Virus record (IMG/VR): IMGVR_UViG_3300045988_010678 | Span: 1 to 5,679 of that record | Direction: 5' to 3' (one strand) | From: a virus | Length of the DNA stretch: 5,679 bases | Shown here: piece after piece, positions 1 to 5,679 of the stretch | Numbering within the stretch: position 1 is the stretch's first letter | Layout: each line of letters opens with the position of its first letter | Program-made: the position numbers and the translations under genes | The notes under the pieces: model-generated | What the model saw: the letters and a program-made list of their open reading frames with translations, nothing else | Told to the model about the DNA's origin: nothing | Databases searched by the model: none

Positions 1-55
1 CGATTCAACAAAATAAAAAACACTCAGCCCAGTATATATACTTGATAGTTACTGG
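1..55. repeat. Terminal direct repeat. Identical to 5625-5679, so this is the overlap of a circularly closed contig with a 5624-nt unit genome.
   Basis: A base-by-base comparison of cgattcaacaaaataaaaaacactcagcccagtatatatacttgatagttactgg at 1-55 and 5625-5679 gives an exact match. The window ends exactly at the end of the repeat. Confidence 0.95.
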
Positions 56-63
56 GCTGAGTG
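10..63 (-). terminator. Rho-independent terminator downstream of VP4
   Basis: There is a 14-bp perfect stem: 21-34 cactcagcccagta pairs with 50-63 tactgggctgagtg, with a 15-nt loop. On the minus strand it is followed immediately by TTTTTTATTTTG (complement of 9-20). It begins 10 nt after the VP4 stop at 73. Confidence 0.8.
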
Positions 64-72
64 ACACCAGGG

Positions 73-1092
73 CTAAAAAACGCCTTTTGCTTTGGACATC
101 TTCTTCTTCATGATTGCTTCTTTATCGGCCAGTTGTTCGGCATACTGTTTGTCAGTTTCCATGTTTCTTTCGATTAGGGATGCAATGGCTTTTTCTTGTC
201 GATACTGCTTGATTCTCCACGCCTTTTCAGGATTTTCAGCTTCCAGCTTTCGCCAATAATATTCTGGAATGGCTGCTCTCTTTCCGTTTGCCAGCTGGAT
301 ATATCCAAGTTGCCAGAGCCTTTCTTGGTGCTCTTGAAACCATGCGTCTCCGAGTCCTGGCTTTCGGCTCATCACGCAGAATGGCGGTCTGAGTCCCATT
401 TTCTTGTACTTGTCTTTGTCGTTTCCGTACAGCTTCTTGGTCACATACCCAGCTACGTAGTTATACGTTTCCGGCGTTGCTTGAGCTATATCTACTGTTC
501 CTTGTCCCCAGACTTTGACCAGTTTATCGCTCGTGTAGTGTCCAAACCTTGACAGTCTGTGAATCGGCTTTAAGTCGTCTGGATTCCACCCGTACAATAT
601 CATGTGATAGTGTGGTCTTGAGGTGTTGTCTCCATACTCTCCCGCTAGAAAGTACCTGAGAGGCCCGCTGACAGTCTTCCTGAGCCTTTTCATGAATAGC
701 TGTATATCTTCCACGCTTAAGGTTTGCACCGTTCTGGGACGCTCTGAGGCGTCTTTCCAGACGTTCACGCCTCCCTTGAAGATTTCCCCTGTTTCCGTGT
801 CCTGTGTTGGCACATGGTCGTCATCATAGGTTAGTGTGATGAACCAGATGCTTTCCTCGTTGTGACTGTATGCTTCTAGTTCCATTCTTGTGGCCCAATC
901 CTTGCGCTTGCGCAGTTTGCATCCTGTGCATTGTCCACATGGAATCATCATTACGTCTTTGCGGTACATCAAGTCTTCATACCGCATTTTGGTCTTATGT
1001 ATCTTGTTAAAAGAAGCGAGTGAGTATACTCGCCCACTCGCTTCTCTGTCGTGAGGTACATAAAACCGGATTAACGGTTTATTGCATCCCAT
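73..1092 (-). CDS. VP4: Replication initiator protein VP4 (HUH rolling-circle endonuclease, Microviridae gene A/VP4 family)
   Basis: 339-aa ORF with an ATG start. It carries RCR motif I FITLTY, motif II HUH as PHYHMILYG, and motif III with paired Tyr as YNYVAGYVTKK. It also has the N-terminal Cys cluster PCGQCTGCKLRKRKDWATR typical of gokushovirus VP4. The start follows the VP2 stop directly (TAAATG). Confidence 0.95.
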   Translation of the reverse strand: MGCNKPLIRFYVPHDREASGRVYSLASFNKIHKTKMRYEDLMYRKDVMMIPCGQCTGCKLRKRKDWATRMELEAYSHNEESIWFITLTYDDDHVPTQDTETGEIFKGGVNVWKDASERPRTVQTLSVEDIQLFMKRLRKTVSGPLRYFLAGEYGDNTSRPHYHMILYGWNPDDLKPIHRLSRFGHYTSDKLVKVWGQGTVDIAQATPETYNYVAGYVTKKLYGNDKDKYKKMGLRPPFCVMSRKPGLGDAWFQEHQERLWQLGYIQLANGKRAAIPEYYWRKLEAENPEKAWRIKQYRQEKAIASLIERNMETDKQYAEQLADKEAIMKKKMSKAKGVF

Positions 1093-1941
1093 TTATTTGA
1101 GTTTTCCTTTCCAAAATTCGATGTTTTTGCTTCCGATGAAGTCTCTCCCCGGTTTGTATTCGAGCTCATCTTTCTTCGGTTGTCTCCCTGCTCCTCCGCT
1201 GACACCACTGTTTAGGTTGCTGAGGTCGTTGAAAACGTCTTTGAATGCATTAAACGCTTTGTCTGCGCTTGTGTGTGACCAGCTTGTAGCGTCTCCGACT
1301 GCTTGTGCTGCGTTGTACCAGTTACTTTCGCTTTTGCTCCATGTGTTGTTGTGGTTCTGGCTTACTCCCAGAGCGCTTGCGCTAGCTGCACTGCTGCTTG
1401 CCAGACCCATGCTTGCCCCGCTGATAGTGGCTTGTGCGCCTCCTGGAGTGCTTGCTCCGCCCTGTTGGTATGCTAAGATAGGGTTGATGCCAGCTTTTTT
1501 CATGTCTTCTACAGCTCGCTGATAAGCTGTATCGCTCATTTGCTTTTGCCACGCTCTGGCTTTGGCTGCCTCTGCGCTGTTGTAGGCCATTGCTGCGTTG
1601 TTGCTTATCTGGTTATATACACCCTGAGTGATTGCCGCCATGGTGTTATAGCCCATTTGCTCGAATACGCTTTGACGGTTAAATTTCTGCTGGCTTTGCA
1701 TATTGCTTTGAATTGCCCCTAGCATACTGTTCCAGTCTTGCAGATTTTGTTCTCGGTTTACGCCGCTGGCGGCGCTGCTGTAGCCGCCTCCCTGGCTTGA
1801 ACTTTCGTTGTGCTGTGTGCTCCCTCCGTTGCTCTCCATCAGACTGCCGCCCAACACTTTGTTTATGAGTCCTCCGGCGATCGTCGGGAGTAGTTGTTTG
1901 CCGATTCCGAGTAGTGCGCTGCCGATTGCTGCTAACGCCAT
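1093..1941 (-). CDS. VP2: Minor capsid / DNA pilot protein VP2
   Basis: 282-aa ORF with an ATG start. It has a hydrophobic Gly/Ala/Leu-rich N-terminus (MALAAIGSALLGIGKQLLPTIAGGLINKVLGG) and a Ser/Gly/Gln/Asn-rich low-complexity body. It contains the conserved segment YQRAVEDMKKAGINPILAY, as I recall it from microvirus pilot proteins. It sits between VP1 and VP4, as in gokushoviruses. Confidence 0.85.
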   Translation of the reverse strand: MALAAIGSALLGIGKQLLPTIAGGLINKVLGGSLMESNGGSTQHNESSSQGGGYSSAASGVNREQNLQDWNSMLGAIQSNMQSQQKFNRQSVFEQMGYNTMAAITQGVYNQISNNAAMAYNSAEAAKARAWQKQMSDTAYQRAVEDMKKAGINPILAYQQGGASTPGGAQATISGASMGLASSSAASASALGVSQNHNNTWSKSESNWYNAAQAVGDATSWSHTSADKAFNAFKDVFNDLSNLNSGVSGGAGRQPKKDELEYKPGRDFIGSKNIEFWKGKLK

Positions 1942-1971
1942 AATAAAACAGCCCGGGGTTTTGCCCCGGGC
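1942..1971 (-). terminator. GC hairpin plus U-tract between VP1 and VP2 (attenuating terminator and/or translational structure)
   Basis: Stem 1951-1958 gcccgggg pairs with 1964-1971 ccccgggc, with a 5-nt loop. On the minus strand it is followed by TGTTTTATT and then directly by the VP2 ATG (1941). Confidence 0.6.
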
Positions 1972-1982
1972 TTCCCCCTTTC

Positions 1983-3662
1983 TTAGTGATGATCTACGAG
2001 TCCAGGAATACTGTACATCGGCATAGGTCTTACAGATGTGTTATCAATGACGGTGTCTATGATAAACTGCGGCTCGTTATCCACGGCCAGAGTCCTCTGG
2101 ATTTCGGAGTCTCCTTCCTTCATCCATGTCTGGCTTAATTTGGGAACTTCCTTGTAGTTGTCGCCGTAGTGCCAGCTGTCCAACGTCCCCGTTGCATTCG
2201 AACGGAACTTGCCGCTGATGCGGTTTGGCTTCATTCGGTACTCTGCCCAGGCTTCCTGATAACCAAAGGCCTGTTCATCTGTGCTCGTACCAGTGAGATA
2301 CAGCTCCTTCTTCAGAATGGCCTGCTCGCCCAGATTTGCGAAGACAGGATAGTAAAAGTCCAAATTGGTCTTGCGACTCCACATACGCTCCAAGCCCTGC
2401 TGGTAGGTATGGTCATGCCGGATGCAGCATACGCCGATAACAAAGCCGTGCTCTTCGAAGCTCTTGGTGAACATGTTCCCGTTGTACGGCGTAACACTGA
2501 TTGCCGCGGCGTTGCCCTGCGGACTTTCTTGCGTCGTGCCGCTGGTCTGGATGACCTGGCTCATGTTGATAGTGATGCGCGTACCGCCCAGGTACTCAGG
2601 AATTTGTACCGTTTTATCGCTGATTTTGGTATGGAACAGCGAATAAATCATCTCGCGGTAACGGCTGCCTCCGCGTGCTAACTGCTCGTAGTACTTTTGC
2701 ACCTGGAATGCCTGTCGCAGCTGGTTGATGGTCGTTGCTGTTACTGCGCTGAGGTCTGTGTAAAGCTTTTGGTCTACTCCTTCGTTTCCCGCTTCGTTGG
2801 ACCCGTAAATGTGCCATGTGTCACCCGAGTTTTCGCCTGTGGTTGTTTTGGGTTCTCCGACTATGGAATAGTTTTTGAAGTATACTGCATTTTCGTCGAT
2901 GACGCTACCGCTGTATGCTCTGATAGGTGCCTTGCCAGTCAGCGGAATGGTTACTGGTTCTCCCGACTTTTGTGGCGAAGGCATTGCGCTTGTGTAATAG
3001 TCGTGGTACTTGTTGACCGGAAGAGGTCTGCCGCCTGTGTATGCGTTCTGGAGAATATACTCCAAGTCCGGTGTTGCTGCGTCCATGCCCTTTGTTTCGT
3101 CGTCCGTGTAGTTTACGGTCGCGTCTGCATCGCTGTTGACGGCTGGATTGTCTACGTTCTGGTCTCGGAACCACTCCTGCCAGATCATGGCGTAGGCTCT
3201 AAACGGCAGTGCGTTAACGCTGAATGCGCTGTCAGTTCCTTTACTCACCTTGGTAGGAATGCCCATGTAGTCCATGATGCTTCCTTCGTACGGTGCCGGT
3301 TTGTCGGTCGAGCCAGTGACTTTGACCTGAGGAATGGTGTACTCCTGAGTCTGTGCCCACGGCTCGGTGTCGTTCTCGCCCATAAACCGCTTGAAGTTTT
3401 TCCAGATGATACGGCACGGTACGTTGAAGTAGTAAATATCCATGTAGCAGTTGTCCATAACTGGGAAGATAGGAGTTGTCATACGGATAATTGCTGCCTG
3501 GTCAATGCTGAAGGTATCGCCGGGTAACACTTCGTCCACATAGAACGGAATGAGCTGGCCTGCGTTCATGGTCAACTTGACGTCCTGCCGCCGTTTGAAG
3601 CGACTTCGCGTAATGTCCAGTCGCGGAACTTGGTTAAAACCTGCGTCTTTGTTCCTGTTCAT
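1983..3662 (-). CDS. VP1: Major capsid protein VP1 (Microviridae F/VP1 family)
   Basis: 559-aa ORF. It shows the N-terminal pattern FNQVPRLDITRSRF...NAGQLIPFYVDEVLPGDTF, the conserved core TINQLRQAFQVQKYYEQLARGGSRYREMIYSLF and a C-terminal PMPMYSIPGLVDHH. The SD sequence AAAGGAGGAA lies 9 nt upstream, and the start overlaps the VP3 stop as ATGA. Confidence 0.97.
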   Translation of the reverse strand: MNRNKDAGFNQVPRLDITRSRFKRRQDVKLTMNAGQLIPFYVDEVLPGDTFSIDQAAIIRMTTPIFPVMDNCYMDIYYFNVPCRIIWKNFKRFMGENDTEPWAQTQEYTIPQVKVTGSTDKPAPYEGSIMDYMGIPTKVSKGTDSAFSVNALPFRAYAMIWQEWFRDQNVDNPAVNSDADATVNYTDDETKGMDAATPDLEYILQNAYTGGRPLPVNKYHDYYTSAMPSPQKSGEPVTIPLTGKAPIRAYSGSVIDENAVYFKNYSIVGEPKTTTGENSGDTWHIYGSNEAGNEGVDQKLYTDLSAVTATTINQLRQAFQVQKYYEQLARGGSRYREMIYSLFHTKISDKTVQIPEYLGGTRITINMSQVIQTSGTTQESPQGNAAAISVTPYNGNMFTKSFEEHGFVIGVCCIRHDHTYQQGLERMWSRKTNLDFYYPVFANLGEQAILKKELYLTGTSTDEQAFGYQEAWAEYRMKPNRISGKFRSNATGTLDSWHYGDNYKEVPKLSQTWMKEGDSEIQRTLAVDNEPQFIIDTVIDNTSVRPMPMYSIPGLVDHH

Positions 3663-4138
3663 TCAGTGGCTTCCTCCTTTTTAGGCTCTTCAGGCTCTTC
3701 TTCCTGATAGATGCCCAGATTTTTTGCCCAGTCAACAGTTCCGAAACTTGCCACGAATTTATCGACGTCATTGTCGAACTTGAGTTTGATTTCCTTTGGG
3801 ATTTCATCCCAGATTTGCTCGGCCCGCAGCATGATGTTCTGAAGCTCCATCAGGTTTTCCGGCATCTCGGTTGCGTCTTGGAGTCCATTACCCATGTCTG
3901 GCACCAGTCTAGCTGCAAGGTCAGGGTCGATGGATGCCCGCCGGAGGATGTTTTCCAGCTTGGTCTCTTCCAGATAGCTGTCGATTTCTGCTTGCTGGTC
4001 GATGGTCTGGTCAAGCGTCAGCACTTTTTCGCCCTTCTTGTTGATTTGCCAAAGGTATGTCCGTCTGATGCTTTCTCCGGCTTCAGTGGCCTTTGCTGTT
4101 GCGGTTTCCCTGAAGTTACTTACTGAGCGATACGCCAT
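3659..4138 (-). CDS. VP3: Internal scaffolding protein VP3. The start is placed at the ATG at 4138, not the TTG at 4186 used by the ORF track.
   Basis: The ORF is in the gokushovirus VP3 position immediately upstream of VP1. The motif IPKEIKLKFDNDVDKFVASF resembles the conserved VP3 C-proximal motif, and the tail is acidic (YQEEEPEEPKKEEATE). The track start codon at 4184-4186 is TTG with no SD, whereas the ATG at 4136-4138 is preceded by AAGGAG with a 10-nt spacer. This gives a 159-aa product. Confidence 0.85.
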   Translation of the reverse strand: MAYRSVSNFRETATAKATEAGESIRRTYLWQINKKGEKVLTLDQTIDQQAEIDSYLEETKLENILRRASIDPDLAARLVPDMGNGLQDATEMPENLMELQNIMLRAEQIWDEIPKEIKLKFDNDVDKFVASFGTVDWAKNLGIYQEEEPEEPKKEEATE

Positions 4139-4352
4139 CGAAGATGTTCTCCTTTTCGTTCTCAAACAGGCCCGTTTTCTCGTCAAACTCTGCCAGGCGC
4201 ACTAACCGATAGTCGCTCGGAGTCTTGCTCATGATGTTCCGTTCATCAGTCAGCGCGATTTTGAAATTGCGTTCGGCCACTTTGTCGTCACGTTCGGTAA
4301 AGATGGTGATGTAACCCATCACGCATTTGTCGAAGATTCCGTATACGTTCAT
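4116..4352 (-). CDS. Small non-structural protein, VP5-like (product assignment from recollected family pattern only)
   Basis: 78-aa ORF with an ATG start, preceded by TAAGGAG and an 8-nt spacer. The pattern M.VY.IFD......I....D..A.R.F...........P.DY.L..L..FD..TG matches my memory of the gokushovirus ORF5/VP5 family. It lies just upstream of VP3, as VP5 does, and overlaps the VP3 start by 23 nt. Confidence 0.7.
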   Translation of the reverse strand: MNVYGIFDKCVMGYITIFTERDDKVAERNFKIALTDERNIMSKTPSDYRLVRLAEFDEKTGLFENEKENIFDGVSLSK

Positions 4353-4364
4353 ATGGTTGTCTCC

Positions 4365-4463
4365 TTACTTGAACCATTCTTTGATGATGTCGATTGCGAT
4401 TACAACTAATACTAACGCGCTTGCCAGAGCTGCCGTTGTGATTCCTGCAAATAGTACACTCAC
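4365..4463 (-). CDS. 32-aa single-pass transmembrane peptide (hypothetical; not in the ORF track)
   Basis: Hand translation from a GTG start gives (M)SVLFAGITTAALASALVLVVIAIDIIKEWFK followed by a stop, that is one hydrophobic helix plus an amphipathic tail. An SD-like GAGGGGG lies 9 nt upstream. The GTG overlaps the upstream ORF stop as GTGA. Its own TAA is embedded in the SD (TAAGGAG) of the next gene. Confidence 0.5.
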   Translation of the reverse strand: MSVLFAGITTAALASALVLVVIAIDIIKEWFK

Positions 4464-4561
4464 AGTCTGATGCCCCCTCTCATCGCTCCGCTTCCCAGGT
4501 TAATGGCCTTGGTCTTGCGTGCTGTCTTGTTGAAGATTTTTGCGTCTTTGGATTTTCGCAC
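4460..4561 (-). CDS. 33-aa highly basic peptide, candidate J/VP8-like DNA-binding packaging protein (not in the ORF track)
   Basis: Hand translation from the GTG at 4561 gives (M)RKSKDAKIFNKTARKTKAINLGSGAMRGGIRL followed by a stop. That is 10 K/R against 1 D. GAGGAG lies 4 nt upstream. An alternative in-frame GTG at 4579 would add MAKRSK. The C-terminal RGGIRL resembles the ...RGGIRF ends I recall for the chlamydiaphage and SpV4 ORF8 proteins. Confidence 0.5.
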   Translation of the reverse strand: MRKSKDAKIFNKTARKTKAINLGSGAMRGGIRL

Positions 4562-4562
4562 T

Positions 4563-4790
4563 TTACTCCTCTTTGCCACGGTTGATGTCCCTTCTGAGGA
4601 TTTCTACCTCAATTTCGTTCGCTGCCGCTTTTTTTCTAAACGCAAGGTCAACGTAATATTTTGCGTCTTCGATTGTTGCGGCCTTTCGAATCATACTGTA
4701 TGCGGCATCTATTGTCTTGTAGGTTTTCGTCAATTCCTGCATAAGGTTCTCGTCGGTCTGGTCTCTTACATTCCATGTTTTGTTCTCCAT
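4563..4790 (-). CDS. Hypothetical 75-aa protein (ORFan, predicted helical, charged)
   Basis: ATG start preceded by GGAGG with a 6-nt spacer. It is co-directional and tightly packed with its neighbours. I recognise no motif. Confidence 0.7.
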   Translation of the reverse strand: MENKTWNVRDQTDENLMQELTKTYKTIDAAYSMIRKAATIEDAKYYVDLAFRKKAAANEIEVEILRRDINRGKEE

Positions 4791-4791
4791 G

Positions 4792-4896
4792 TTAAGCCTC
4801 CGGTTCGTTTTCTGTTACTGCGTGGTAGATTTTGTCCAGCATTGCAAGGATTTTTTGGATGTTGTCAAACAGCGTTTTGATTTCTTGGAGAGTCAG
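4792..4896 (-). CDS. Possible 34-aa ORF with a non-canonical CTG start (tentative)
   Basis: An extended SD, GAAAGAGGTGA (complement of 4904-4914), has no ATG/GTG/TTG at usable spacing, but an in-frame CTG (4896) lies 9 nt after GAGG. The frame reads (M)TLQEIKTLFDNIQKILAMLDKIYHAVTENEPEA and ends in a TAA one base before the next ATG (TAAcATG). Confidence 0.3.
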   Translation of the reverse strand: MTLQEIKTLFDNIQKILAMLDKIYHAVTENEPEA

Positions 4897-4918
4897 AGCG
4901 ATTCACCTCTTTCGTAAA

Positions 4919-4947
4919 ATTATTTTTGTAAAAATAGAATTTGTGAG
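4919..4947 (-). promoter_or_regulatory. Putative sigma70-type promoter for the small-gene/structural operon
   Basis: On the minus strand: CTCACA (complement of 4942-4947), a 17-nt spacer, then AATAAT (complement of 4919-4924). It sits in an AT-rich gap just downstream of the 4985-5015 terminator and upstream of the strong SD at 4904-4914. The matches are only 4/6 and 5/6. Confidence 0.3.
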
Positions 4948-4984
4948 GAACACTTCTGTGCTGTTTAACTATTTGTTTTGTATC

Positions 4985-5015
4985 AAAAAAAAGGGGGATT
5001 GTCAACCCCCTTTTT
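4985..5015 (-). terminator. Rho-independent (potentially bidirectional) terminator ending the Cys-rich gene cassette
   Basis: The structure is A8 (4985-4992), GGGGG (4993-4997), an 8-nt loop, CCCCC (5006-5010) and T5 (5011-5015). On the minus strand the hairpin is followed by T8. The gene's stop codon (5002-5004) lies in the loop. Confidence 0.75.
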
Positions 5016-5184
5016 CCGGTCTTTTATTTCGTTCGTCGAGTTCCTTTTTGATTTCTTCGTATACGTATCTGCAACGTTTTCCTTCGACTTTGCATGGGCA
5101 GCTCTCACAATCCCCTTCACAATATTCGTATCTGTACTTCATGTAGATTAACTGTTTGTTACTTGTAAACCGTAAACTAGTCAT
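5002..5184 (-). CDS. 60-aa cysteine-rich hypothetical protein (C-x3-C-x2-C-x-C-x6-C, basic/acidic helical tail)
   Basis: ATG start preceded by AAGGAG with a 7-nt spacer. The sequence is MTSLRFTSNKQLIYMKYRYEYCEGDCESCPCKVEGKRCRYVYEEIKKELDERNKRPEKGG. The gene has its own upstream promoter candidate and its own downstream terminator. Confidence 0.75.
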   Translation of the reverse strand: MTSLRFTSNKQLIYMKYRYEYCEGDCESCPCKVEGKRCRYVYEEIKKELDERNKRPEKGG

Positions 5185-5214
5185 ATTGGTTCTCCTTTAC
5201 TGTGAAGCAGCTTG

Positions 5215-5243
5215 ATTGTACCGTATTTTTAGAAGAAAGTCGA
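5215..5243 (-). promoter_or_regulatory. Putative sigma70-type promoter for the Cys-rich gene
   Basis: On the minus strand: TCGACT (complement of 5238-5243), a 17-nt spacer, then TACAAT (complement of 5215-5220). The -10 element lies about 30 nt upstream of the ATG at 5184. Confidence 0.4.
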
Positions 5244-5284
5244 GATTTTTTTGAAAAAAAGTTAGAAGAATTTTGCATTGAAGG

Positions 5285-5322
5285 TCATGCGCTAGGCGCG
5301 GTGCGCCGTACGAAGAGCATGA
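5285..5322. repeat. GC-rich nested inverted repeat in the non-coding region
   Basis: The outer arms are tcatgc (5285-5290) and gcatga (5317-5322). The inner hairpin is ggcgc (5295-5299) pairing with gcgcc (5303-5307), with a 3-nt loop. Confidence 0.6.
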
Positions 5323-5360
5323 TGTAACTTTCCGGCCAGCTGCCGAACTGCCTCTAATTG

Positions 5361-5538
5361 AGTTTTCAACACTTTCAACACTTTCAACAGGTTTTCCACA
5401 AAAAGTTGCACAAATGGTTTTGTGCATATTGCTACACTTTCAACAATTCAACAAGTTTTCAACAAAGTTTTCAACATCAAAATGATTCATAAAATATTGT
5501 TCCATGGATAAAAATTTATAGTTTTCAACATTTCAACA
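5361..5538 (+). repeat. Iteron-like array of nine same-orientation TTCAACA copies, with a tenth at 5628-5634 (equivalent to 4-10)
   Basis: TTCAACA starts at 5365, 5374, 5383, 5439, 5447, 5458, 5470, 5524 and 5532. There is a perfect 9-nt tandem tttcaacac/tttcaacac/tttcaacag at 5364-5390. The 11-mer AGTTTTCAACA occurs at 5361, 5454, 5466 and 5520. The variant GGTTTTCCACA is at 5390-5400. Confidence 0.9.
5407..5426. other. Small perfect hairpin within the iteron region
   Basis: tgcacaaa (5407-5414) pairs with tttgtgca (5419-5426), with a 4-nt loop tggt. Confidence 0.6.
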
Positions 5539-5583
5539 CTCCCTACTACTGCTACTACAACAAGTAAATAATAAAATAATAAA

Positions 5584-5629
5584 AATCGTTCGTGCGCGTG
5601 CGCGATTTCGTGCGCGTGCGCGAACGATT
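5584..5629. repeat. GC-rich composite element: a tandem 17-nt direct repeat that also forms an imperfect 21-position inverted repeat
   Basis: ttcgtgcgcgtgcgcga occurs at 5589-5605 and 5607-5623. Each copy contains (CGTGCG)2CG, which is strictly alternating pyrimidine/purine. The outer arms aatcgttcg (5584-5592) and cgaacgatt (5621-5629) are perfectly complementary. The element is flanked by AT-rich tracts at 5562-5583 and 5631-5644. Confidence 0.9.
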
Positions 5630-5679
5630 CAACAAAATAAAAAACACTCAGCCCAGTATATATACTTGATAGTTACTGG
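5625..5679. repeat. Second copy of the terminal overlap (identical to 1-55)
   Basis: Exact 55/55 identity with the window start. Confidence 0.95.

Follow-up and report, generated by a model that had tools for sequence, protein, structure and literature searches.

The stretch of DNA analysed here, called the window throughout, comprises positions 1 to 5,679 of the IMG/VR virus record IMGVR_UViG_3300045988_010678. It holds a circular genome of 5,624 nucleotides (nt), bases 1–55 being identical to bases 5625–5679 as a terminal overlap. The genome is that of a gokushovirus-like member of the Microviridae, and its closest database relatives come from human, pig and monkey faeces with a genome-wide identity of at most 84%. 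All long open reading frames (ORFs) are carried by the minus strand, here also called the gene strand. The gene for the replication initiator VP4 (73..1092, minus strand; Pfam PF23343 REP_ORF2-G2P, E = 6e-18) has its stop codon 10 nt from a hairpin with a 14-base-pair (bp) stem, hairpin 1 (21..63, plus strand, also 5645–5679 and beyond). On the gene strand it is followed by a GC-rich hairpin, hairpin 2 (5584..5629, plus strand), and by an array of nine TTCAACA iterons (5365..5538, plus strand), candidate binding sites for Rep or a regulator. Hairpin 2 is the subject of this analysis. It is real and evolutionarily maintained, with selection acting on structure rather than sequence, and this structure is preserved on the plus strand, opposite to all genes. 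Taken together with hairpin 1 and with the base composition of the genome, this suggests that the packaged strand of this phage is the one opposite to its genes, namely the plus strand of the window.

On the plus strand, hairpin 2 consists of a stem formed by positions 5584–5604 with 5609–5629 and of the loop ATTT (5605–5608). Reading the pairs directly from the sequence gave 21 pairs, namely 17 Watson-Crick and 4 G·T pairs (5593·5620, 5596·5617, 5599·5614 and 5602·5611). The arms contain two direct copies of TTCGTGCGCGTGCGCGA (5589..5605 and 5607..5623, plus strand), each with a 14-nt core of strictly alternating pyrimidines and purines (5591–5604 and 5609–5622). Tandem Repeats Finder described this repeat with a period of 18, 1.9 copies, 100% matches and a score of 70. 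There are no other 14-nt alternating runs of this kind in the window, 0.33 were expected by chance, and two or more were seen in 14 of 200 shuffles. A sequence-only reading of this DNA had already described the 46-nt element, its tandem copies and its alternating cores, and every number it gave proved correct. This includes the 21 pairs, the 4-nt loop and the division into 17 Watson-Crick and 4 G·T pairs which it had proposed for the plus strand, as well as the 9-bp outer stem which it had proposed as common to both strands. As single-stranded DNA the plus strand of hairpin 2 folded at −21.6 kcal/mol (z = −4.0), and 0 of 200 shuffles folded as well. The minus strand reached −15.5 kcal/mol (z = −1.6), was matched by 12 of 200 shuffles and kept only the outer stem of about 9 bp intact. 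With 184 nt of context the plus strand formed two clean hairpins (z = −8.6). A search against Rfam 15 gave no match in or near 5562–5644, and two chance-level matches (E about 0.5) elsewhere.

Hairpin 2 is embedded in A-rich DNA. On its 5' side lies an A-rich unstructured tract (5562..5583, plus strand), which on the gene strand is the T-run after the hairpin, and on its 3' side an A-rich spacer (5630..5644, plus strand) of 15 nt separates it from hairpin 1. The distance to the iterons is about 90 nt. The spacer overlaps a tenth TTCAACA copy (5628–5634, plus strand), which also overlaps the end of the right arm of hairpin 2, exactly as the earlier reading had it. Between 5365 and 5634 there are thus ten plus-strand copies of TTCAACA, with about 1 expected by chance, and a count test gave 12 matches versus 1.09 expected. 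These iterons are kept in many gut gokushoviruses, even where the remaining genome has lost DNA similarity. In one locus (L015) the iterons are reversed in orientation relative to both hairpins.

Conservation was analysed in 18 close relatives from IMG/VR with VP4 86–96% identical and with sequence recovered downstream of VP4. The hairpin was found at the homologous place in 18 of 18, so that the proposal of a functional element, which had been made dependent on conservation among relatives sharing VP4, held on this point. On the gene strand, the VP4 stop codon of the relatives is followed by hairpin 1, the GC hairpin, an AT-rich tract, a conserved box ACTTGTTGTAG..GTAGTAGTAG and the iterons. 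Hairpin 1 is nearly invariant among them, reading CACTCAGCC[A/C]AGTA, loop, TACT[T/G]GGCTGAGTG on the gene strand. Between almost identical flanks, the GC hairpin has accumulated many transitions and 2-nt indels; its stems are hypervariable, its core shows no transversions, and its loop occurs as ATTT, ATTA, ATTC, ATCA, CTAT, CTTT or TCTA.

This variation is strongly constrained by pairing. When 19 distinct sequences were paired outward from the loop, 277 Watson-Crick pairs and 81 A·C pairs on the gene strand, equivalent to G·T on the plus strand, were counted. There were no gene-strand G·T pairs inside the GC core and three at the outer fringe, in addition to two other mismatches. On the gene strand T occurs opposite A only, and several independent double changes from G-C to A-T were observed. 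A formal count over the inner 16 pairs of 22 homologues yielded 98.6% paired cells for the window plus strand, with 7 pairs (21 cells) changed on both sides, and 72.4% paired cells for the gene strand, with 8 pairs (24 cells) changed on both sides; for either strand 0 of 500 shuffles reached this level. The per-column sequence identity was just 82% alongside 98.6% pairing. The compensatory changes for which the sequence-only reading had recommended looking in related genomes do therefore exist on the plus strand. The minimum free energy calculated for DNA was lower on the T-rich, plus-sense strand in 24 of 25 genomes, with means of −20.5 versus −14.3 kcal/mol. As the strand asymmetry is kept across relatives, it is not a peculiarity of one genome. 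The alternation of pyrimidines and purines persists because the pairing constraint tolerates only transitions.

We calculated from the base frequencies at four-fold degenerate sites that neutral drift would give about 41% T·G and about 13% C·A pairs. The observed values were about 23% and about 0%. The virtual lack of C·A pairs, compared to the 13% expected, indicates selection for pairing on the T-rich strand on top of mutation bias. The GC hairpin is thus a clean natural example of strand-specific structural selection, even if the conclusions on strand polarity drawn below should fail.

A consistent polarity became visible in other microviruses. In 14 further lineages, 62 of 63 non-Watson-Crick pairs were G·T on one and the same strand of each hairpin, the sole exception being a single G·T pair of L173, which lies at the outer hairpin edge and on the opposite strand. 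The T-rich loop (TTT, ATTT, ATTA or TAT) of these lineages is likewise found on the G·T strand. As 7 of the lineages have this strand in gene sense and the other 7 in antisense, a function tied to the direction of transcription offers no explanation. In 16 of 16 genomes the G·T strand was the T-rich strand at four-fold degenerate sites, the coding-strand T-A skew ranging from +0.51 to +0.80 where the G·T strand is sense and from −0.40 to −0.76 where it is antisense. For the window this skew amounts to −0.45 on the coding strand (A 33.3%, T 19.2%). The G·T strand furthermore coincided with the strand of a second hairpin, whose loop contains ACTTGAT: this was so in all 9 genomes that have the strict motif and, with a relaxed motif, also in L176, L177 and L178.

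In the window this second hairpin is hairpin 1, with the stem CACTCAGCCCAGTA / TACTGGGCTGAGTG and the loop tatatACTTGATagt. Directly 3' of it lies the box GTGACACC (61..68, plus strand), which is conserved beside the ACTTGAT hairpin in genomes of both the sense and the antisense type. The whole element (21–68, plus strand) reads CACTCAGCCCAGTA-tatatACTTGATagt-TACTGGGCTGAGTG-ACACC and is antisense to the genes. Distant gokushoviruses have the hairpin in gene sense, with the loop ACTTGAT(G) followed by GTGACACC, for example GCACAGTT-acctACTTGATGt-AACTGTGC-tagGTGACACC. A loop with [A/T]CTTGAT and (G)TGACAC(C) after the stem is shared by about 70 gokushovirus-like genomes and by the cultured Chlamydia phage 2 (Chp2), whose hairpin is on the sense strand. 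The stems of the ACTTGAT hairpins are near-perfect: apart from 5 G·T pairs (motif strand) and a single A·C pair, all pairs are Watson-Crick (668). The viral-strand origin of phiX174, CAACTTGATATTAATAAC, can be written as CAACTTG^ATATTAATAAC, with the nick annotated at 4306. Judged by sequence, hairpin 1 is hence a candidate for the VP4 nick site (ACTTG^AT in the loop ACTTG^ATAG, plus strand), and a better one than hairpin 2. The likeness to the phiX174 viral-strand origin and to HUH nick-site hairpins lies in hairpin 1, whose ACTTGAT loop is conserved across gokushoviruses, while hairpin 2 has neither a conserved loop motif nor a fixed spacing to hairpin 1. The motif is antisense to the genes in the clade of the window, in contrast to phiX174, where it is on the sense strand.

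The relation between motif strand and base composition was followed in a sample of 80 genomes (L181–L260), chosen by the capsid protein VP1 alone. The T-A skew at four-fold sites of the coding strand was strongly bimodal, with values of about +0.5 to +0.8 or about −0.4 to −0.7. The orientation of the ACTTGAT-type hairpin agreed with the sign of the skew in 63 genomes, and an antisense hairpin together with a positive skew was found in none. Two controls behaved alike: in phiX174, where sense and viral strand are the same, the skew is +0.81 and ACTTG^ATA is on that strand, and in Chp2 the hairpin is sense-oriented and the skew +0.37. In a rough VP1 tree, at least three separate positions were taken by the antisense type, and one clade of the sense type was nested among clades of the antisense type; this scattering suggests several flips. 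A similar joint change is known from the inversion of the control region of animal mitochondria, in which origin orientation and the sign of the neutral-site skew flip together, as in several microvirus lineages. There, a different replicon and a different mechanism are involved, and the parallel is an analogy only. The alternating GC hairpin was present in 22 of the 80 genomes, nearly all of them with at least 53% VP1 identity to the window and with the hairpin at the homologous position.

With its T-richness at neutral sites and with ACTTG^AT in the loop of hairpin 1, the plus strand of the window is most likely the strand which is nicked, displaced and packaged. The sequence-only reading had taken the minus strand for the virion strand; this is probably wrong, since the plus strand is the one favoured by three features, namely the G·T asymmetry, the location of the ACTTGAT motif and the abundance of T at four-fold sites. 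With a probability of roughly one half, we interpret hairpin 2 as a structural signal of the displaced and packaged plus strand, most likely one for the initiation of complementary-strand synthesis. VP4 would nick the plus strand at ACTTG^AT and displace it by rolling-circle synthesis, after which it would be packaged; in the clade of the window the packaged strand would be antisense to all genes. Pressure from C to T would make this strand T-rich. Within the hairpin, such drift would turn C-G pairs into tolerated T·G wobbles, and the opposite change would produce C·A mismatches, which would be purged. Arms composed of CG and TG dinucleotides and a one-sided asymmetry would be the outcome. Between unstructured stretches of A-rich DNA, the hairpin could then stand out as a stable island of duplex not covered by single-strand binding protein and mark the start site for complementary-strand synthesis by host enzymes. 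Two findings are of the kind expected for a complementary-strand origin: the fold is on the T-rich strand with the ACTTGAT motif, and its structure was kept with covariation while the sequence drifted. In addition, the distance between the GC hairpin and the ACTTGAT hairpin varied between about 10 nt and over 1 kb among 12 genomes, the GC hairpin being located on either side; this variation points to an autonomous single-strand element, as complementary-strand origins are.

Known systems offer both likenesses and differences. The G4 complementary-strand origin provides a precedent within the Microviridae for initiation at an intergenic hairpin. For phiX174, hairpins in intergenic regions of the viral strand are described as starting complementary-strand synthesis, with the primosome assembly site among them (PMC9865509, section 3.8). 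The primosome assembly site of phiX174 (the n'/PriA hairpin between F and G) and the G4-type origins are stable non-coding hairpins of Microviridae, as is hairpin 2. They act on the packaged single strand in an orientation-dependent manner, with structure outweighing most of the sequence, and the same may apply to hairpin 2. There is no sequence similarity between them: hairpin 2 is an alternating (YG)n duplex (Y, pyrimidine) with a T-rich loop of 3–4 nt, while the phiX174 and G4 sites consist of a branched hairpin of 55 nt or of three hairpins and a CTG start site. Similar considerations hold for the single-strand origins ssoA and ssoU of rolling-circle plasmids and the minus-strand origins of f1/M13. 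Like hairpin 2 on the present interpretation, they are strand-specific folded DNA on a displaced strand, situated apart from the nick site, and are swapped, gained and lost as cassettes. They differ in mimicking promoters or bearing RS_B and CS-6 motifs, none of which is found in hairpin 2.

The arrangement can be extended beyond this genome. We see an about even chance that the gokushovirus origin module is inverted relative to the genes here and in several large gut clades, representing about half of the 80-genome sample. VP4 of these phages would nick, displace and package the strand complementary to the mRNA, making them negative-sense Microviridae. Several such flips would have taken place, each reversing the T/A skew of the whole genome, and the GC hairpin would be a complementary-strand initiation signal on the packaged strand.

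We are aware of a number of points which weigh against these conclusions. Six genomes (L236, L238, L244, L246, L256 and L258) combine a sense-strand hairpin with a moderately negative skew (−0.32 to −0.41), and the cultured phage phiMH2K, with a skew of −0.33, lacks a clear hairpin; T-A skew indicates the packaged strand only imperfectly. Polarised singleton changes in VP4 of the 18 relatives gave mixed signals, with too few events and a polarisation bias, and the VP1 tree is a rough neighbour-joining tree only. Many loci stem from a single metagenome (3300045988). In a sister clade (L199–L205) the GC hairpin was found in L202 only, a near-absence which indicates that it is gained and lost and is either dispensable or replaceable. 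In most close relatives a T5 run follows the hairpin on the gene strand, so that a secondary role in termination is possible. Finally, C-to-T bias alone predicts an excess of T·G over C·A of about 3:1, and the asymmetry is thus partly mutational. Mutation bias as its sole cause was rejected, because C·A is far rarer than this ratio predicts and T on the gene strand is restricted to positions opposite A.

A role of hairpin 2 within the double-strand origin, either as the structure nicked by VP4 or as a cruciform or Z-DNA element which aids AT-rich melting in the supercoiled replicative form, is improbable in our view. Cruciforms are classically extruded where a GC-rich inverted repeat is bordered by AT-rich DNA, and hairpin 2, between its AT-rich tracts, has the ACTTGAT hairpin at a distance of 15 nt and the iterons at about 90 nt. 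For a cruciform both strands would have to fold, but mismatches at about 23% of the pairs are tolerated on the complementary arm. This one-sided tolerance indicates that there is no cruciform requirement, as such a requirement would penalise both types of change equally. By sequence, both 14-nt alternating runs would qualify as Z-DNA-prone, for which a CG/TG-rich alternating run of at least about 12 nt was taken as the measure. The alternation is already explained by transition-only evolution under the pairing constraint, and the Z-DNA interpretation put forward from the single sequence gained nothing from the comparison. Since neither the loop nor the stem sequences are conserved, there is no fixed nick motif, and the variable distance to the nick-type hairpin and the loss of the hairpin in most of the sister clade also speak against this role. 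The earlier proposal of a replication origin is accordingly to be divided: for the control region as a whole it is reasonable, this being a conserved module of non-coding DNA with iterons and a phiX174-like nick motif, while hairpin 2 itself, with its variable loop, stem and spacing, is unlikely to be the nick site.

Is the element functional for the phage at all? Searching with BLAST and scanning for the exact pattern revealed a core of the form CGTGCGCGTGCGCG-loop-CGTGCGCGTGCGCG in about 8 unrelated lineages of microviruses, at differing genome positions: in Dulem virus 200 it directly follows the capsid gene, in a capybara microvirus the minor capsid gene comes before it, and in two genomes from pig faeces VP5. 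This recurrence, the gain and loss within tight clades, the insertion of other GC hairpins between hairpin 1 and the iterons of relatives and the abundance of (GTGCGC)n microsatellites in other viral and bacterial DNA would all fit a selfish or neutral GC-rich quasi-palindrome, arising by duplication or slippage of (CGTGCG)n or spread by recombination. Nevertheless, we regard an element without phage function as unlikely. Such an element does not explain 98.6% pairing at 82% column identity with compensatory double changes, nor a core without transversions, nor the essential lack of C·A on the T-rich strand, for which neutral drift predicts about 13%. Moreover, the apparent conservation across distant viruses is in part ascertainment by the BLAST and pattern searches. 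The distant recurrence of the exact core reflects partly this ascertainment and probably also slippage or duplication of the hexamer. The regular core pattern is far commoner than random placement of T would give, and such hairpins may be born by tandem duplication of a wobble-self-complementary unit.

Further observations concern the surroundings of the GC hairpins. In two loci, a blackfly microvirus and one IMG/VR genome, the hairpin overlaps the 3' end of an annotated or predicted Rep gene (L003, 161–189; L019, 3360–3388). The annotation may be too long at these places, or else coding sequence tolerates the hairpin. The stretch from hairpin 1 to the ACTTGTTGTAG box is a hot spot of insertion, with extra, unrelated GC-rich hairpins in L187, L189, L190, L193, L194, L197, L202 and L234, for example GGGGGTAGGCCTATCGGCCTACCCCC and GGCACTTGTGAG..GTGCC.

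Hairpin 2 could also act as a second, tandem intrinsic terminator of VP4, the gene-strand RNA folding and being released at the U-run, a function to which we assign a low probability. Hairpin 2 is placed downstream of VP4 and of a first terminator-like hairpin, its minus-strand RNA, with a folding energy of −25.1 kcal/mol (z = −3.0), has the U-run UUUUUAUUAUUUU behind it, and the T5 run of most close relatives has been noted above. Like Rho-independent terminators, it is a GC-rich inverted repeat that comes after the last gene and has a T-run on the gene strand. It differs from them in that pairing is degraded on the transcribed sense, down to 72.4%, and kept on the other strand, and the mismatches on the transcribed sense are A·C, which are not expected in a selected RNA stem. 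Nor is the T-run conserved beyond the close relatives: the wider clade keeps the hairpin without it, followed instead by sequences such as TATAATATTAAC, and other microviruses have no T-run on either side of the hairpin. A consensus terminator scan did not call hairpin 2. Finally, the role of terminator is already taken here by hairpin 1, which on the minus strand (63..21) follows the VP4 stop codon as a terminator-like 14-bp stem with a T6 run. A fold in a plus-strand antisense RNA across the 3' end of VP4, serving as regulator or primer, would account for the asymmetry by G·U pairing, which suits any plus-strand nucleic acid, and a weak sigma-70-like site (5468–5495, plus strand) is directed towards the hairpin, but this is very unlikely given promoter-like matches at chance level (6 found versus 5.8 expected), no U-run after the hairpin on the plus strand, no Rfam match and the genome-wide T-richness of the same strand at four-fold sites, which it leaves unexplained.

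Several other candidates were considered. An origin of the hairpin as a host-derived repeat was addressed by searching the core pattern in 185,579 bacterial genomes. The outcome, only (GTGCGC)n microsatellites in high-GC bacteria and one repeat-laden metagenome-assembled genome, carries no weight on this question, as the N{2,5} loop of the pattern let continuous microsatellites match; the long viral contigs matching the pattern were likewise microsatellites and not hairpins. Long (GTGCGC)n arrays are present in unrelated long viral contigs and high-GC bacteria (L005, L008, L011, L014, L017, L018, L020–L031; L053–L132). One metagenome-assembled genome, CBDHHR01, labelled 'Metamycoplasmataceae', contains dozens of them on many contigs, which is odd for the taxon and may be due to contamination or mis-binning. 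A binding site for a sequence-specific protein (GTGCGC, four times) was considered. The exact core recurs in distant viruses, yet close relatives vary freely, which makes a reader of the hexamer unlikely. The hexamer GTGCGC is reminiscent of the XerC arm of the E. coli dif site. The dif motifs of enterogokushoviruses comprise 28 bp, an 11-bp arm, a 6-bp spacer and an 11-bp arm, and resemble the host dif (PMC7062461). Inspected by eye only, with no formal search, hairpin 2 showed neither the 11-6-11 organisation nor an AT-rich XerD arm, and a XerCD dif-like site was discarded.

Just beyond hairpin 2 the gene strand carries a conserved box ACTTGTTGTAGnnGTAGTAGTAG(A/G)G (window 5541–5565, plus strand), found in the loci L181–L205, L207, L227 and L234. 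In the wider clade a TATAAT-like hexamer is located 6–7 nt upstream of it. The box looks like a promoter with leader or like a degenerate iteron, compared to AACTTGTTGAA inside the array. The box AACTTGTTGTAG, on the gene strand just past hairpin 2, was considered as an alternative, sense-strand nick site and rejected: it is conserved in the clade of the window and in L199–L205 only, it resembles an iteron (AACTTGTTGAA) and is preceded by a TATAAT-like box, and is more likely a feature of a promoter, leader or iteron.

The remaining genes on the minus strand are a VP2-like ORF of 282 amino acids (1941..1093), the major capsid protein gene VP1 (3662..1983; Phage_F, E = 2e-146), a scaffold protein gene of the Chlamydia phage type (4186..3659) and ORF5/VP5 (4352..4116). 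A GC-rich imperfect palindrome, ggtcatgcgctaggcgcggtgcgccgtacgaagagcatgac, lies in AT-rich surroundings at 5286–5330 (plus strand), inside a 76-amino-acid ORF (5427..5197). In the relative MG945657 (84% identity overall) a single base of it is changed, T to C close to the 3' end. Terminator-like hairpins with a T-run on the gene strand were observed within the iteron region (TGCACAAAACCATTTGTGCA, 5407–5426, minus strand), at 4994–5010 (GGGGGTTGACAATCCCC, minus strand) and directly after VP1 (AGCCCGGGGCAAAACCCCGGGCT, 1950–1972, minus strand).

The hairpin itself is of a known kind, a structural hairpin in the genome of a single-stranded DNA phage. To our knowledge, the Microviridae have been treated as uniformly positive-sense. 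A survey of 81 genomes stated that complementary-strand genes had not been reported in the family, one unknown gene which it described itself in one genome aside (Roux et al., 2012; PMC3394797). In our literature searches, which included the literal sequences, neither the GC hairpin nor an origin hairpin of gokushoviruses turned up, and packaging of the antisense strand was described for none of the Microviridae. If confirmed, the strand polarity proposed here would come as a real surprise for the field, as a major group of human and animal gut phages would package the non-coding strand. Strand-specific libraries of single-stranded DNA viromes, probes and quantitative PCR assays would then need a different reading, and the bimodal composition of third codon positions in gokushoviruses would be explained. 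The GC hairpin would be a first candidate for a gokushovirus complementary-strand origin, and the orientation of the ACTTGAT hairpin and of the wobble hairpin would provide a simple rule by which virion strand and origin could be assigned in thousands of uncultured genomes.

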